The position numbers and the translations under genes were made by a program. Below the pieces are notes generated by a model. It was not told where the DNA came from and searched no databases. It saw nothing but the letters and a program-made list of their open reading frames with translations. Positions 19,813 to 24,627 of a stretch of DNA of 52,916 nt are shown here, in pieces; the stretch's first letter is position 1; every line of letters begins with the position of its first letter. This stretch comes from Clostridiales bacterium (GTDB lineage: Bacteria; Bacillota; Clostridia; Lachnospirales; WRAX01): assembly GCA_031277225.1 (NCBI GenBank), contig JAITMQ010000003.1, positions 1-52,916 on the forward strand. The letters are read 5' to 3'.

Positions 19813-19832
19813 GGATATATTATACTATTTAT

Positions 19833-19861
19833 TTGACTTTTGCACAAGTGTTTGATAGAAT
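19833..19861 (+). promoter_or_regulatory. Sigma-A promoter of pheS (short leader)
   Basis: TTGACT (19833-19838), a 17-nt spacer, then TAGAAT (19856-19861) with TGn. Only about 20 nt separate the -10 from the pheS ATG. Confidence 0.65.
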
Positions 19862-19881
19862 TGTTTAAAGGAGTGGTTTAT

Positions 19882-20916
19882 ATGAAAGATGATTTATTGA
19901 AAATTAAAGGACAGGCCTTGGATAGCATTGCCCAAGCCGCCGATTTGCGGGCTTTAGAGGATGTGCGCGTGGCCACCTTCGGGAAAAAAGGCACGGTTAC
20001 GGCACTTTCGCGGACAATGGGTTCGCTTAGTGCCGAAGAAAGACCCGCCATGGGTCAGATGGTAAATGAGGTGAAAGACGCTCTGGAAGCGGCTTTTACA
20101 GCCAAAAAGCAGGGGCTGGCAGATGCGGCCTTAGAGGCTTCGCTTGCCGACGAAAAAATCGACATAACTCTGCCCGGGCGCAATTTTGCTTTGGGAAGCA
20201 AGCACCCCCTAACCACCGTTATTGACGAAATTTGCAGGATTTTTATGGGCATGGGCTATGAAATTGCCACGGGGCCCGATGTTGAAACGGATTATCATAA
20301 TTTTGAGGCACTCAATATCCCGAAAAACCACCCCGCGCGGGACGAACAGGACACCTTTTATGTCGAAGGCGGCCATGTTTTGCGCACGCATACAAGCCCC
20401 GTGCAAATCCGCAAAATGTCGGAGGGCAGGCTTCCTATTGCGGCCGTTGCGCCCGGCAAAGTCTTTCGTTCTGACGAGGTTGATGCCACACATTCCCCCG
20501 TTTTTCACCAAATTGAGGGGCTGGTGGTGGATAAGGGGATACACATGGGTCATCTTAAGGGCGCGCTGACGGTCTTTGCCGAGGCCCTCTTTGGCGAGGG
20601 CGTTAAAACCCGCTTTAGGCCGCATCATTTCCCATTTACCGAACCTTCCGCCGAAATGGATATTTCCTGCTTCGGCTGTGGGCAGGATGCCGAAAAAATG
20701 CAGGATTGTCGCATTTGTAAGGGCGAGGGCTGGGTTGAGCTGCTGGGTTGCGGAATGGTGCATCCCAAGGTGCTGGCGGGCTGTGGCATTGACCCCGAAG
20801 TCTATTCGGGCTTTGCATTCGGCATGGGCTTAGAGCGCATTGCCATGCAACGCTATAATATAGACGATATGCGCCTGTTGTTCGATAATGATATGCGATT
20901 CTTAAAGCAGTTTTAG
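19882..20916 (+). CDS. pheS: Phenylalanine--tRNA ligase alpha subunit
   Basis: HPARDEQDTFY, FHQIEGLVVD and FTEPSAEMD, plus the Cys-rich CFGCG...CRICKGEGWVELLGCGMVHP segment. ATG 19882 follows AAAGGAG. Confidence 0.97.
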   Translation: MKDDLLKIKGQALDSIAQAADLRALEDVRVATFGKKGTVTALSRTMGSLSAEERPAMGQMVNEVKDALEAAFTAKKQGLADAALEASLADEKIDITLPGRNFALGSKHPLTTVIDEICRIFMGMGYEIATGPDVETDYHNFEALNIPKNHPARDEQDTFYVEGGHVLRTHTSPVQIRKMSEGRLPIAAVAPGKVFRSDEVDATHSPVFHQIEGLVVDKGIHMGHLKGALTVFAEALFGEGVKTRFRPHHFPFTEPSAEMDISCFGCGQDAEKMQDCRICKGEGWVELLGCGMVHPKVLAGCGIDPEVYSGFAFGMGLERIAMQRYNIDDMRLLFDNDMRFLKQF

Positions 20917-20934
20917 TGGGCGGTGGTGGATAAT

Positions 20935-21369
20935 ATGAAAGTGTATTTGGATAATTGCTGCTTCAACAGACCATTTGATGACCAAAGTGCCTTGATTGTC
21001 AGACTTGAAACGGAGGCCGTGTTGCTGATTCAGCAGTTAATTAGGGATGGAAAGCTTAAGCTTGTGTGGTCTTTTATGATTGATTATGAAAATGCAGCCA
21101 ACCCTTTTATTGAAAAACGTAGCAGAGTAAATGCTTGGAGAAGCATGGCGGACGAGAATATTCAACATTCATTTCATATCGCAAAGAAAGCTGCCGAATG
21201 TATGTATTTGGGATTCCGAGAAAAGGATGCCGTCCACATAGCTTGCGCGTTTGACGCAAAAGCCGATTATTTTATAACAACCGACAAAAAAATACTCAAC
21301 AAATCTGTAGATGGTGTCGAATTTTTGAATCCAATCGAATTTTTGAGGAGGTATGACGATGTTAAGTGA
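20935..21369 (+). CDS. PIN-domain protein (putative toxin/RNase)
   Basis: MKVYLDNCCFNRPFDDQS...VWSFMIDYEN...KDAVHIACA...YFITTDKKIL supplies the acidic PIN residues (D6, E, D, TTD). It starts 18 nt after the pheS stop. Confidence 0.78.
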   Translation: MKVYLDNCCFNRPFDDQSALIVRLETEAVLLIQQLIRDGKLKLVWSFMIDYENAANPFIEKRSRVNAWRSMADENIQHSFHIAKKAAECMYLGFREKDAVHIACAFDAKADYFITTDKKILNKSVDGVEFLNPIEFLRRYDDVK

Positions 21370-21568
21370 TACTTTATTACAGCGAGAGGGCATGAGGGTT
21401 TTGGCCGAAAATTTGGGTCTGGTTGAGGCGGGGCGATTTATTGCTCTTATGAATAGAGAGCCTTTTGATTATACCAAATGGCAGCATGGCTTATTTGCGG
21501 ATTTATCCCTTGAAGAGCTTCTTGCGCGGGCAAATCAATATCAAATTGAAAATTTTGGGAGGTCATGA
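21353..21568 (+). CDS. 71-aa protein, putative partner (antitoxin?) of the PIN protein
   Basis: It overlaps the PIN 3' end by 17 nt. Its TGA (21566-21568) overlaps the pheT ATG(s) at 21565/21568. No family was recognised. Confidence 0.5.
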   Translation: MTMLSDTLLQREGMRVLAENLGLVEAGRFIALMNREPFDYTKWQHGLFADLSLEELLARANQYQIENFGRS

Positions 21569-23952
21569 TGAAATTACCTATATTATGGTTAAAGGAATTT
21601 ATTGACATAGACTTAGAAGGCGGGCGGCTTTTGGAATTTGCCGAGAGGATGACCATGAGCGGCTCTAAAGTCGAGAAGATTCACCGTTTTGGGCATGAGA
21701 TTACGGGGGTTATTGCGGGGCGCGTTGAGCAGCTTTTGCCCCATCCCAATGCCGACAAATTGCTGATTGCGCGCGTAAATGTCGGCGCGCCCGAATTGAA
21801 GCAAATCGTTACGGGTGCGGACAATCTTAAAGAGGGCGATTATATCCCCGTTGCGGTTCATGGCGCGAATTTGGCGAATGGCCTTAAAATCAAGAAGGGC
21901 AAAATCCGCGGCGAGGTTTCCGACGGCATGTTGGTGTCCATTGAAGAAATGGGCTATAGCCGCGCGGAATTTCCGGAAGCGCCGGAAAATGGCATCTACG
22001 TATTCGACAAGCCGCAAGAATTGGGCGCGGATGCGCGACCCTTGCTTGGGCTTTTGGATGATGTTATAGAGTTTGAAATTACGACGAATAGGCCGGACTG
22101 CTTCTCAATTGTCGGTCTGGTTCGCGAGGCTTCTGCGGCTTATAATTATCAATTATCAATTAACAATTATCAATCAAATGTTGAAAAGGCCGCGCCTATT
22201 GAGGTGGAGATTGCTAATCCAGAGCTTTGTCCGCGATATATTGCCGCCGTGGTTGAGAATGTTCGGATTGCGCCATCTCCGCTTTGGCTGCGCTCGCGGC
22301 TGATTGCCTGCGGTCTGCGCCCCGTTAACAATATTGTTGACATTACAAATTATGTAATGCTTGAATATGGCCAGCCCATGCACGCCTTTGATATTCGCGC
22401 AATCGAGGGCGGCAAAATCATTGTGCGAAATGCCGCCAAGGGCGAAAAAATCACGACTTTAGATGGCATTGAGCGGGATTTAAGCGAGGATATGCTGCTA
22501 ATTGCCGACCCCGTTAAGGCCGTGGGCATTGCCGGCATCAAGGGCGGCGAATTTTCCAAAATTTTGGACGATACAACCACGATTTTATTTGAATCGGCAA
22601 ATTTTTATGGGCCGAATATTCGGCTAAGCTCTAAGGAGCTTGGTTTGCGCACGGATTCTTCGGGACGCTATGAAAAAGGGCTTGACCCGACTCTGGCCGA
22701 AACCTGCATTTTGCGGGCTTTAGAGCTGGTGGAGCTGCTTGATTGCGGCGACATTGTGCCGGGTCTGACGGATTGTTATCCCATGCGGCGCGACACGCGC
22801 GAGCTAAAGTTTGACCCACAGCGCATTAACGCCCGTTTGGGTATTGACCTGCGCCCCGCGCAAATTGCCGAAATTTTGGAGTGTTTGGGCATTTCTGTCG
22901 CAAAAAATGTCGCAACAATACCCACTTTCCGCTATGATATAACAACTTGGGAGGATTTGTCGGAAGAAGTTGCGCGGCTTTACGGATATGATAATATTCC
23001 CACGGTTGTGGCATCTTCCGCCAATGTTGGCGTTAAAAATTCCGCGCAAATTATGGAAGCGCGGCTGGTGGACATCATGGTTGCGCTGGGCTTTTCCCAA
23101 GCCCTAACCTATGCCTTTGAATCGCCCAAAGTCTTTGATAAGCTGCTTATTCCCGAAAATTTCGAGCTTCGCAACACGGTTCGAATTCTTAATCCCTTGG
23201 GCGAGGACACAAGCATAATGCGCACAACCCCGCTAAATTCAATGCTTACGGCACTTTCAACGAATTATAATCGCCGCAACCCGACAGCACGGCTTTTTGA
23301 GCTGGTTAAAGTCTATACGCCGAATGAGAATCCGCAGGAATTGCCCGCCGAAACGCAAAAACTCGTGGTTGGCGGCTATGGCGATATGGATTTTTATGAC
23401 ATCAAGGGCGTTTTGGAGGCCGTAACCAAGGCCTTTGGCGTTGAAAGCAATTTCGAGCCGCCATTTTTCGACGTTTTGCCCTATATGCATCCCGGGCAGG
23501 TTGCCTGCGCAACCTTTGAATGTGGCGCGCCGCTGGCTTTTTGCGGCAAAATTCACCCCAAGGTTGCCGAAAATTATGAAATTGACCGGCCTGCCTTTGT
23601 GGGCGTGCTAAATTTTGACAAATTGTGCGAAAACGCCGTTTTAAGCAGGGATTACAGCCCCCTGCCGCGCTATCCGCAAATCAGCCGCGACCTTGCCGTC
23701 GTCGTTAAAAATGACATTCGTCATGGCCAAATCGCCGCCAAAATCAAAGAAGCGGGCGGCAAATATCTCCGCGCGCTAAAGCTTTTTGACATTTATGCGG
23801 GCAAAACCCTGCCCGAAGGGCATAAATCCATGGCCTATAATCTTATTTTCCGCGCGGACGACCGCACATTGGAAGACAAAGATGCGACAAAAGCCACCGA
23901 AAAAATCCTGGCGGCCCTAGGCGAAGCCTTCGACGCCCAATTGCGGCAATAA
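21565..23952 (+). CDS. pheT: Phenylalanine--tRNA ligase beta subunit
   Basis: The tRNA-binding domain (HPNADKLLIARVNVG) is followed by B3/4, B5 and FDX-ACB regions, giving 795 aa. The start is ATG 21565 or 21568, after GGGAGG. Confidence 0.97.
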   Translation: MMKLPILWLKEFIDIDLEGGRLLEFAERMTMSGSKVEKIHRFGHEITGVIAGRVEQLLPHPNADKLLIARVNVGAPELKQIVTGADNLKEGDYIPVAVHGANLANGLKIKKGKIRGEVSDGMLVSIEEMGYSRAEFPEAPENGIYVFDKPQELGADARPLLGLLDDVIEFEITTNRPDCFSIVGLVREASAAYNYQLSINNYQSNVEKAAPIEVEIANPELCPRYIAAVVENVRIAPSPLWLRSRLIACGLRPVNNIVDITNYVMLEYGQPMHAFDIRAIEGGKIIVRNAAKGEKITTLDGIERDLSEDMLLIADPVKAVGIAGIKGGEFSKILDDTTTILFESANFYGPNIRLSSKELGLRTDSSGRYEKGLDPTLAETCILRALELVELLDCGDIVPGLTDCYPMRRDTRELKFDPQRINARLGIDLRPAQIAEILECLGISVAKNVATIPTFRYDITTWEDLSEEVARLYGYDNIPTVVASSANVGVKNSAQIMEARLVDIMVALGFSQALTYAFESPKVFDKLLIPENFELRNTVRILNPLGEDTSIMRTTPLNSMLTALSTNYNRRNPTARLFELVKVYTPNENPQELPAETQKLVVGGYGDMDFYDIKGVLEAVTKAFGVESNFEPPFFDVLPYMHPGQVACATFECGAPLAFCGKIHPKVAENYEIDRPAFVGVLNFDKLCENAVLSRDYSPLPRYPQISRDLAVVVKNDIRHGQIAAKIKEAGGKYLRALKLFDIYAGKTLPEGHKSMAYNLIFRADDRTLEDKDATKATEKILAALGEAFDAQLRQ
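22144..22178. repeat. Heptamer tandem repeat (AATTATC-like) x5 inside pheT
   Basis: The units are aattatc aattatc aattaac aattatc aatcaaa. The stretch is translated as YNYQLSINNYQSN. Confidence 0.85.
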
Positions 23953-23968
23953 TGAAAGGGGAATTATT

Positions 23969-24247
23969 ATGACCAAAACCAGCATGACTTTAGACATTGA
24001 CTCCGATTTGAAAGAGCAAACCGAGGAATTGCTTCAAGATATGGGGCTGGACATGTCCACGGCCGTAACCCTTTTTGCGAAGGCCGTGGTGCGGCAGCAA
24101 CGAATTCCTTTTGAAGTTGTGGCAAGTAATCGAGCTTATTATGATTTTAACAGAAAAAAAGCCCTTGAGCCTGACAGCATGGCCGGCAAAATTTGGATTG
24201 CGGATGATTTTGACGCACCTTTGGATGAATTTAAGGAGTATATGTGA
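23969..24247 (+). CDS. RelB/DinJ-type antitoxin with a Phd/DUF2281-like C-terminal tail
   Basis: TLDIDSDLKEQTEELLQDMGLDMSTAVTLFAKAVVRQQRIPFEV matches DinJ. The C-terminal GKIWIADDFDAPLDEF is typical of VapB-type tails. Confidence 0.8.
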   Translation: MTKTSMTLDIDSDLKEQTEELLQDMGLDMSTAVTLFAKAVVRQQRIPFEVVASNRAYYDFNRKKALEPDSMAGKIWIADDFDAPLDEFKEYM

Positions 24248-24627
24248 TGAAAATACTTTTGGACACCCATATCGTGTTGTGGATTCTTAGTAGCAGCAAG
24301 AGGCTTTCGCAATCAACCATCCACATAATTTCAGAAAAAAAGAATCAAAAATTCATCAGTTTGGCGGCCGTATGGGAGTTGGCCATCAAAATAAATCGTG
24401 GAAAAATGGCCTTTGAGGGCGGCATCACAGGATTTCTTAATTTGATACAGGAAAGCGACATTGAAATATTGCATATAACTCCGCCGCATATTGAATATCT
24501 GGAAAAGTTACCGCCTATCCACCAAGACCCTTTTGACAGAATAATGGTGGCGCAGGCCATGTTTGAAGGCATGTTTTTTGCAACGGTGGATAGTAATGTA
24601 AAGAAATATGATATTATGCACATTTGA
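24247..24627 (+). CDS. vapC: VapC-family PIN toxin
   Basis: MKILLDTHIVLW...SLAAVWELAIK...QDPFDRIMVAQA. It shares a TGATG stop/start overlap with the antitoxin. Confidence 0.88.
   Translation: MKILLDTHIVLWILSSSKRLSQSTIHIISEKKNQKFISLAAVWELAIKINRGKMAFEGGITGFLNLIQESDIEILHITPPHIEYLEKLPPIHQDPFDRIMVAQAMFEGMFFATVDSNVKKYDIMHI

Follow-up and report, generated by a model that had tools for sequence, protein, structure and literature searches.

Why should a gene for a PIN-domain protein and a small partner gene lie between pheS and pheT, the two cistrons of an essential and normally inseparable operon for phenylalanyl-tRNA synthetase (PheRS)? This arrangement occurs in a DNA stretch of 52,916 nucleotides (hereafter the window) from an uncultured member of the Clostridiales (contig JAITMQ010000003.1, GenBank assembly GCA_031277225.1). 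An initial annotation of this DNA suggested a possible functional association between the nuclease and the synthetase. The present analysis indicates that the two-gene cassette is probably a mobile type II toxin-antitoxin module of reverse gene order, which was captured without a promoter in an essential operon; its placement would be opportunistic and unrelated to the role of PheRS.

Organization of the pheS-PIN-partner-pheT locus

Direct reading of the sequence showed four packed and co-oriented cistrons on the forward strand, with the PIN-partner cassette between pheS and pheT. The pheS gene (19882..20916), which encodes the alpha subunit of 344 aa (PF01409, E 3.5e-102; PF02912), ends with a TAG codon at 20914-20916. 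It is followed by a spacer of only 18 nt (20917..20934), which contains a GGTGG Shine-Dalgarno sequence serving the PIN gene and is too short for the cassette to have its own promoter or operator. The PIN gene (20935..21369) starts with the ATG at 20935, stops with a TAA at 21369, and encodes a VapC-like PIN-domain protein of 144 aa, a putative toxin or RNase according to its fold and catalytic residues. The position of this gene, 18 nt past the pheS stop, had been reported correctly in the initial annotation.

The second cassette gene (21359..21568) encodes a small helical partner of 69 aa, which is regarded as a putative antitoxin from its synteny and co-evolution with the PIN gene. It had been described as a 71-aa gene overlapping the PIN gene by 17 nt. 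A small overlapping gene is indeed present; however, the most likely start is the ATG at 21359 (69 aa) rather than the ATG at 21353 (71 aa), since the distance from the end of a GAGGAGG sequence is 7 nt for the ATG at 21359 and just 1 nt for that at 21353. Moreover, every relative begins with M-L/K-T-D, and gene callers also record 69 aa. Read from this start, the partner gene overlaps the PIN gene by 11 nt.

At the other border, the partner stop codon TGA (21566-21568) falls within the ATGATG (21565-21570) that opens pheT, and the final partner codons GGG AGG TCA TGA cross the Shine-Dalgarno sequence of pheT. This native GGGAGG (21555..21560) is intact, stands in a context shared with some of the relatives, and now lies inside the partner coding sequence. 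The pheT gene (21568..23952, five PheT Pfam domains) encodes a beta subunit of 794 aa from the ATG at 21568, or of 795 aa from the ATG at 21565. The former is probably the start, because the relatives align from the second methionine (MKLP..., residue 2 onward) and GGGAGG is located 7 nt upstream of it. The overlap of the partner TGA with the pheT ATG was therefore described properly, as was the coupling, whereas the junction is probably TGATG with an overlap of 1 nt and not ATGA; the coupling is tight whichever pheT start holds. Stoichiometric co-expression, which had also been proposed, found no support; each gene has its own Shine-Dalgarno sequence.

A stretch of 1177 nt spanning both junctions is 100% identical in a second assembly (Logan SRR14710899). 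This identity, the homologues of the PIN protein and the 1468 representatives of the partner family (see below) indicate that the cassette genes are real and not chance open reading frames (ORFs).

The PIN-domain protein

Homologues of the PIN protein numbered at least about 3000 among the matches listed, with E-values down to 1e-53. Their identities are 55-63%, and the named sources include Firmicutes, Treponema, Desulfosarcina, Holophagales, Synergistaceae and Coriobacteriia. An AlphaFold2 model of the protein has high confidence (predicted local distance difference test, pLDDT, 95.6; predicted template modelling score, pTM, 0.89) and contains strands alternating with helices. The Foldseek search of this model against the PDB returned 26 matches at E<=1e-3, nearly all of them VapC or PIN proteins, with template modelling (TM) scores of 0.54-0.63. 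The top matches are the VapC toxins of Rickettsia, Shigella, Salmonella, the E. coli F plasmid, Caulobacter and M. tuberculosis (for the best of these, probability 1.0, E 3e-5, TM 0.57-0.63), and archaeal PIN proteins are also among the best ones.

Alignment of 31 family members, including the protein of the window, showed that the acidic residues D6, E25, D98 and D117 are invariant, together with the N-terminal motif YLDNCC(F/Y)NRP(F/Y)D and the motif DAxHxACA. The PIN profile PF01850 was matched weakly by 30 of the 31 relatives (E<=0.1; best 1.7e-6). The hhalign comparison with the canonical VapC of the window (described below) was weak; D98 and D117 are aligned in it with the final two acidic residues of VapC. 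The first cassette gene is accepted here as encoding a predicted intact PIN nuclease domain, whose enzymatic activity is presumed; the PIN identity proposed in the initial annotation agrees with the preservation of all four acidic active-site residues.

The cysteines C8 and C9 (of DNCC) and the residues H101 and C104 (of DAxHxACA) are also invariant or near-invariant in the family. They lie beside the catalytic aspartates and are missing from canonical VapC. These cysteines and the histidine may provide an additional metal-binding or redox-sensitive site.

Other searches gave little. The profiles of both families had no meaningful match in a sequence search of PDB chains, and the only match in PHROGs was a weak one between the PIN C-terminus and phrog_14427 (unknown function). 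PADLOC matched none of the four toxin-antitoxin proteins of the region, and the tblastn search of 50,697 phage records found no homologues of the PIN pair. A search for a recent DNA donor gave a best protein identity of 63%, with DNA similarity confined to about 50 nt encoding the conserved N-terminal motif. The isoelectric points were uninformative, as the PIN protein and the partner are both acidic.

The partner protein

The word-indexed search retrieved 16 relatives of the partner; the full search with the hidden Markov model (HMM) of the family extended this to 1468 cluster representatives (E<=1e-3), of which 557 reach E<=1e-10. The length is 60-80 aa in almost all of them, and the core motif REPFDYTxW is invariant. 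The initial annotation had assigned the partner to no recognised family. This holds for Pfam, NCBIfam, PADLOC, PHROGs and the PDB, and every source that names the family labels it ‘hypothetical protein’. In particular, no HicB match was found in Pfam or NCBIfam for the partner and its 16 relatives. The AlphaFold2 model has four helices at moderate confidence (pLDDT 76), and its fold search against the PDB and BFVD returned only noise (E>=3), with no structural relative. Literature searches revealed no paper describing this family.

The PIN-first order in the family

Eighty metagenomic loci encoding PIN relatives were searched with the HMMs of the PIN protein and the partner. The partner gene was found directly downstream on the same strand in 78 of the 78 informative loci; the other two contigs end too early. 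Among the 77 complete pairs, the genes overlap in 71 (by 4-23 nt) and are 1-7 nt apart in the remaining 6. An overlap of 11 nt occurs in 34 pairs, and overlaps of 4, 8 and 23 nt occur in 18, 16 and 3 pairs, respectively; the 11-nt overlap of the window is the commonest arrangement in the family. Identity between pairs of PIN proteins correlates with that between their partners (r 0.77; Mantel test, a value attained by 0 of 2000 permutations). For example, Treponema primitia ZAS-2 carries the pair with a partner 48% identical to that of the window. The pair is also retained at 31-38% PIN identity on Butyrivibrio and several cyanobacterial plasmids, where the downstream gene of about 68 aa is still homologous. 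The nuclease-first order had been noted as reversed relative to vapBC. This is correct, but it is the rule for the whole family (78/78) and not a peculiarity of the locus; the PIN-first order is an invariant family architecture and not a rearranged vapBC.

Decayed copies of the module were also observed. At one locus (L112:4621-4789), PIN residues 1-21 and partner residues 31-65 remain in tandem after an intact pair. The protein P0183 consists of the first ~60 PIN residues followed by a complete partner; it was considered as a genuine PIN-partner fusion and rejected, being a decay product of a truncated PIN protein plus partner. A second candidate fusion, P0018, was rejected as well, because it is merely an N-terminally extended PIN protein.

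Foreign composition and absence from relatives

The base composition of the cassette differs from that of the operon. The G+C content is 39.1% in the PIN gene and 41.9% in the partner gene, compared with 52.4% in pheS and 50.0% in pheT. At third codon positions, the values are 41% and 37% in the cassette genes versus 57% and 54% in pheS and pheT.

The pheST locus was then compared in the 80 Clostridia species genomes of GTDB with the most similar PheT. The two genes are adjacent in the 80 genomes; the gap is shorter than 200 nt in 77 of them, with a median of about 19 nt as judged by eye. The cassette was found in none of the 80 loci, nor in any of the eight closest lineages (PheS 73-81% identical). 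These were the closest PheS sequences among 5.8 billion proteins, and those with a named source belong to metagenome-assembled genomes of Defluviitaleaceae. As far as these data reach, the synteny of pheST points to a lineage-specific insertion without conservation. Among the distant Clostridia, three loci contain other genes between pheS and pheT: a 106-aa ORF of no known family (L051:4751-5071), a YitT/DUF2179 membrane protein (L067:3100-3981), and three uncharacterised ORFs (L078:2151-3976).

Target-site duplications, terminal inverted repeats and attC-like elements were searched for in 20600-21800, and only short repeats at chance level were found, none bracketing the cassette. Insertion as a transposon or integron cassette has no positive support, as border repeats are absent and the partner ORF runs directly into the pheT Shine-Dalgarno sequence.

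The pheS-pheT spacer as an insertion hotspot

The same spacer carries unrelated cargo in several of the eight closest lineages. In one (L172/L173, PheS 79%), it is 840 nt long and encodes a 99-aa ORF and a retropepsin-like protein of 165 aa (PF13975/PF13650). In another (L174/L175, PheS 79%), 564 nt contain the gene of an AAA_18 P-loop kinase of 183 aa, and in a third (L178, PheS 74%), 657 nt contain that of a Uma2-family endonuclease of 202 aa (PF05685). Two lineages have non-coding spacers. In L170 (PheS 81%), 262 nt consist of a degenerate duplicate of the pheS 3'-end and (GTCAGA)n/(TCTGAC)n hairpins; in L171 (PheS 80%), 86 nt contain two hairpins. The other three spacers are compact, with 13 nt (L003, PheS 78%), 24 nt (L176, PheS 74%) and 9 nt (L179, PheS 73%). 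With the window left out, gene insertions occur in 3 of the 8 closest lineages versus 3 of 79 distant Clostridia (Fisher p 0.009).

These insertions share a common layout. All cargo genes are co-oriented with the operon and start 9-18 nt past the pheS stop, behind a Shine-Dalgarno sequence. The native pheT context (A/G)GGAGGTCA(T/A)T-ATG is kept in the window, L170 and L172; L175 has a close variant, and the other loci have GGAGG variants. In the window, as in L175, the inserted gene extends with its final codons across the native ribosome-binding site of pheT. The pheS-pheT spacer is therefore a lineage-specific insertion hotspot, whose cargo is unrelated between lineages. Since the same spacer holds three other unrelated cargoes in sister lineages, the placement of the PIN pair looks opportunistic.

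Within the L170 spacer (L170:1040-1301), the duplicate repeats the final ~90 nt of pheS in degenerate form, and hairpins follow each copy. An earlier insertion or excision may have left this arrangement as a scar, or a tandem duplication may have done so.

Genomic contexts of the PIN-partner family

In a census of the ORFs flanking the family loci, 92 neighbours matched 119 Pfam families, none of which occurred in more than three loci. No other family locus (0 of about 84) is situated at pheST. The contexts include a position directly beside a RelE gene with flagellar genes about 1 kb downstream, one between flotillin and ftsW, and one beside ABC transporters. In about one quarter of the loci, a same-strand gene ends within 50 nt upstream of the PIN start, which suggests that lodging behind another gene is common for this PIN family. 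Some pairs are located behind a reverse transcriptase, a UvrD helicase, or a TPR protein with a weak, sub-threshold TIR match. Another one lies behind a protein with a weak AbiEii match (E 2.8e-4, just under the Pfam cut-off), and another just upstream of an AAA_13 ATPase. Given the many phyla, the plasmids, the lack of recurrent neighbours and the deviant G+C content, the module is widespread and horizontally mobile.

Two further contexts were observed. On the Planktothrix agardhii plasmid NZ_LR882945.1 (L169:704-4428), a distant pair with 34% PIN identity is located between hsdS and hsdR of a type I restriction-modification (R-M) operon, 4 nt past hsdS and 57 nt before hsdR. At L085:2-1935, a class I aminoacyl-tRNA synthetase gene (Anticodon_1, tRNA-synt_1) ends 5 nt ahead of a pair, which in turn lies 17 nt upstream of an RraA-like gene.

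Expression and the downstream vapBC pair

A promoter-like site (TTGACT-17-TAGAAT with a TG element; 10 of 12 consensus matches) lies at 19833..19861 on the forward strand, about 20 nt upstream of the pheS ATG. It could be the sole plausible promoter serving the cassette; the consensus scan suggests this weakly, as the numbers of promoter and terminator sites in the region were not above those in shuffled sequence. A G+C-rich terminator hairpin was not found on the forward strand between pheS and pheT. Firmicutes usually regulate pheST through a T-box. Here, the Rfam scan of the whole window revealed no family at gathering score, and therefore no T-box leader before pheS and no nearby tRNA that might serve as an integration site. 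The region upstream of pheS (19813-19881) is only about 70 nt long and has no T-box.

The operon is followed, 16 nt past the pheT stop, by a canonical antitoxin-first vapBC pair on the forward strand (23969..24627; junction read directly). The antitoxin (23969-24247) is a RelB/VapB protein of 92 aa (PF04221, E 1e-9; TIGR02384, E 1.7e-16; TA_VapB), and the toxin (24244/24247-24627) is a canonical PIN protein of 126/127 aa (PF01850, E 2.1e-13). The two genes overlap (TGATG/GTGA), and the G+C content of the pair is 40-44%. This pair was not found in the relatives. The scan showed no terminator-like site between pheT and vapBC; a single transcript pheS-PIN-partner-pheT-vapB-vapC is likely. PIN modules of opposite gene order thus lie both within and behind the pheST operon.

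Interpretation and alternative explanations

The following mechanism is proposed as the most probable one. The PIN protein would be a VapC-like endoribonuclease and a toxin, and the all-helical partner of about 67 aa would bind the PIN active site, block it and so neutralise the toxin. The overlap of the two genes would ensure that the partner is made whenever the PIN protein is made. In an uncultured Defluviitaleaceae-like bacterium, the promoterless module was probably inserted into a pheS-pheT spacer of 9-24 nt, between the pheS stop and the native ribosome-binding site of pheT. It would be transcribed from the pheS promoter, with transcription probably continuing into the downstream vapBC, and pheT would still be translated from its own Shine-Dalgarno sequence, now within the last codons of the partner. 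Retention of the module may be explained by addiction, by the risk to pheT that a deletion would carry, or by both. Its location would reflect a lineage-specific hotspot and the difficulty of deletion inside an essential operon.

Several observations weigh against this interpretation. The PIN protein of the window stays under every Pfam and NCBIfam cut-off (PIN_3, 17.4 bits with a cut-off of 27; TIGR00305, 13.4 bits with a cut-off of 29.15), so that its membership of the PIN family rests on the fold and the catalytic residues. The partner has no recognisable DNA-binding or antitoxin domain, in addition to having no structural relative. Antitoxins usually diverge faster than their toxins; the partner, however, is about as conserved as the PIN protein (47% vs 51% mean pairwise identity). 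No operator-like palindrome is shared upstream of nine free-standing relatives, which is a weak test for the whole family. A weak terminator-like site (forward strand, 6-pair stem with 3 G-C pairs) is present inside the partner gene at 21443-21461, although the region contains no more sites of this kind than shuffled sequence does. Lastly, the nearest PheS is only 81% identical, and therefore the age of the insertion cannot be fixed and conservation of the cassette at the species or genus level is possible.

The features of the partner are also the reason why another explanation was kept, although it is considered doubtful: the pair might be a two-subunit RNase or a phage-defence effector, with the partner serving as its sensor, adaptor or specificity subunit. 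A protein without a DNA-binding domain that is conserved like its PIN neighbour, with a strictly invariant REPFDYTxW and no operator found, is a poor fit to a classical antitoxin. Several family loci also lie beside defence-type genes (reverse transcriptase, UvrD, weak AbiEii, weak TIR/TPR, AAA_13, and hsdS/hsdR). However, no PADLOC model matches either protein, the phage records contain no homologues, and the neighbour census is dominated by unrelated housekeeping genes. The strict bicistronic coupling and the patchy distribution suit a toxin-antitoxin module equally well. It is rather unlikely that the spacer is a dedicated, scar-free landing site for promoterless selfish or defence-type genes and that the PIN pair, at the same time, represents a previously undescribed toxin-first family, of toxin-antitoxin or defence type, whose antitoxin has a new fold. 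If the landing site were dedicated, the cargo would be expressed from an essential operon in which imprecise deletion is lethal; if both parts were true, the activity of the PIN pair would also be slaved to pheST expression, and hence to translation status.

The functional association suggested in the initial annotation would mean that the PIN nuclease, co-expressed from the operon, acts on tRNA-Phe or other translation RNAs, so that its toxicity would depend on how much charged tRNA-Phe is available. In favour of this are the position of the cassette within the operon and its close coupling to pheT; the known targets of VapC toxins also include tRNAs or the 23S sarcin-ricin loop (PMC5499597). 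The pair located 5 nt after a class I aminoacyl-tRNA synthetase gene might point in the same direction; but one such neighbour among about 53 upstream neighbours is within chance (rough P ~0.3, with about 0.7% of genes encoding aminoacyl-tRNA synthetases). Moreover, there is no second family locus at pheST and no recurrent neighbour family, the cassette is missing from the relatives, several of which have unrelated cargo at this junction, and the base composition of the cassette is foreign. The counts of 0/80 Clostridia, 0/8 closest lineages and 0/~84 other family loci, with a G+C content at least 10 points below the flanks, make this association very improbable. Finally, the cassette might be a decaying, functionless remnant, tolerated since its deletion would risk pheT. 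The lack of its own promoter and the decayed family copies elsewhere (L112, P0183) would be compatible with this, but both reading frames are intact and of full length, all the invariant residues are kept (PIN protein, 27; partner, 13), and both genes have a good Shine-Dalgarno sequence at optimal spacing. A remnant is accordingly the least probable of these explanations, and an opportunistically placed toxin-antitoxin module is still the probable one.

These results have several implications. A large PIN family with an obligate partner that is unrecognised by the databases means that such PIN genes could be scored as antitoxin-less. If the partner is an antitoxin, it would represent a new antitoxin fold, and the pair would be another toxin-first architecture in the VapC group. 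The by-product of most interest is the repeated, cargo-diverse use of the pheS-pheT spacer in the Defluviitaleaceae-like clade: foreign genes can enter between the cistrons of an operon that is essential and whose two genes are normally inseparable, and in one clade this has happened repeatedly with varied cargo. The pheST locus thereby bears on how selfish genes find genome positions that are hard to delete. For annotation, a toxin gene in an aminoacyl-tRNA synthetase operon calls for a synteny check before a functional association is assumed.

Comparison with known systems

The cassette resembles the VapBC systems of Shigella/Salmonella, Rickettsia felis (VapBC2) and M. tuberculosis in its PIN toxin of ~130-145 aa with four acidic residues, its bicistronic overlapping genes, its horizontal mobility and its patchy distribution. 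However, the gene order is reversed, and the partner belongs to no known family or fold, being neither a ribbon-helix-helix, AbrB or Phd protein nor a helix-turn-helix protein. The cassette also has no visible promoter or operator, and its PIN protein contains the motif DNCC(F/Y)NRP(F/Y)D and scores under the Pfam PIN cut-offs.

A hotspot with variable cargo at the pheST genes has been reported in Pseudomonas aeruginosa, where the core defence hotspot cDHS1 adjoins pheS/pheT/rplT (PMC10250203). The Pseudomonas hotspot is located beside the operon, with a tRNA-Pro gene and full defence systems; here, by contrast, single genes or pairs occupy the space between the two cistrons, and neither a tRNA gene nor an integrase was observed. 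A toxin-antitoxin module at such a position was not encountered in the literature searches. Promoterless modules inside a host operon are also known from type I R-M systems. According to Matelska et al. (2017, PMC5499597), close species do not share such arrangements of PIN toxin-antitoxin genes within type I R-M operons, and some of them apparently lack the antitoxin. The Planktothrix member between hsdS and hsdR links this family to such modules; the host operon of the cassette, by contrast, is an essential housekeeping operon and not a defence operon.

The reversed order has parallels in Synechocystis 6803, for which PIN3-HicB pairs (for example slr5116/ssr5117) and PIN-hypothetical pairs (slr1383/ssr2317 and sll1543/ssl2999) were predicted (PMC4963859). 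These pairs are in the ‘T-AT’ order, and initial results indicated RNase activity for Slr5116 (PMC4963859). By this published description, the likeness consists of a PIN toxin upstream of a small partner, and distant members of the cassette family are found on cyanobacterial plasmids; the partner of the cassette differs from that of the PIN-HicB pairs in having no HicB match. Toxin-first PIN pairs themselves thus have precedent, and the cassette between pheS and pheT combines a putative VapC-like toxin with a downstream partner of a new, uncharacterised family.

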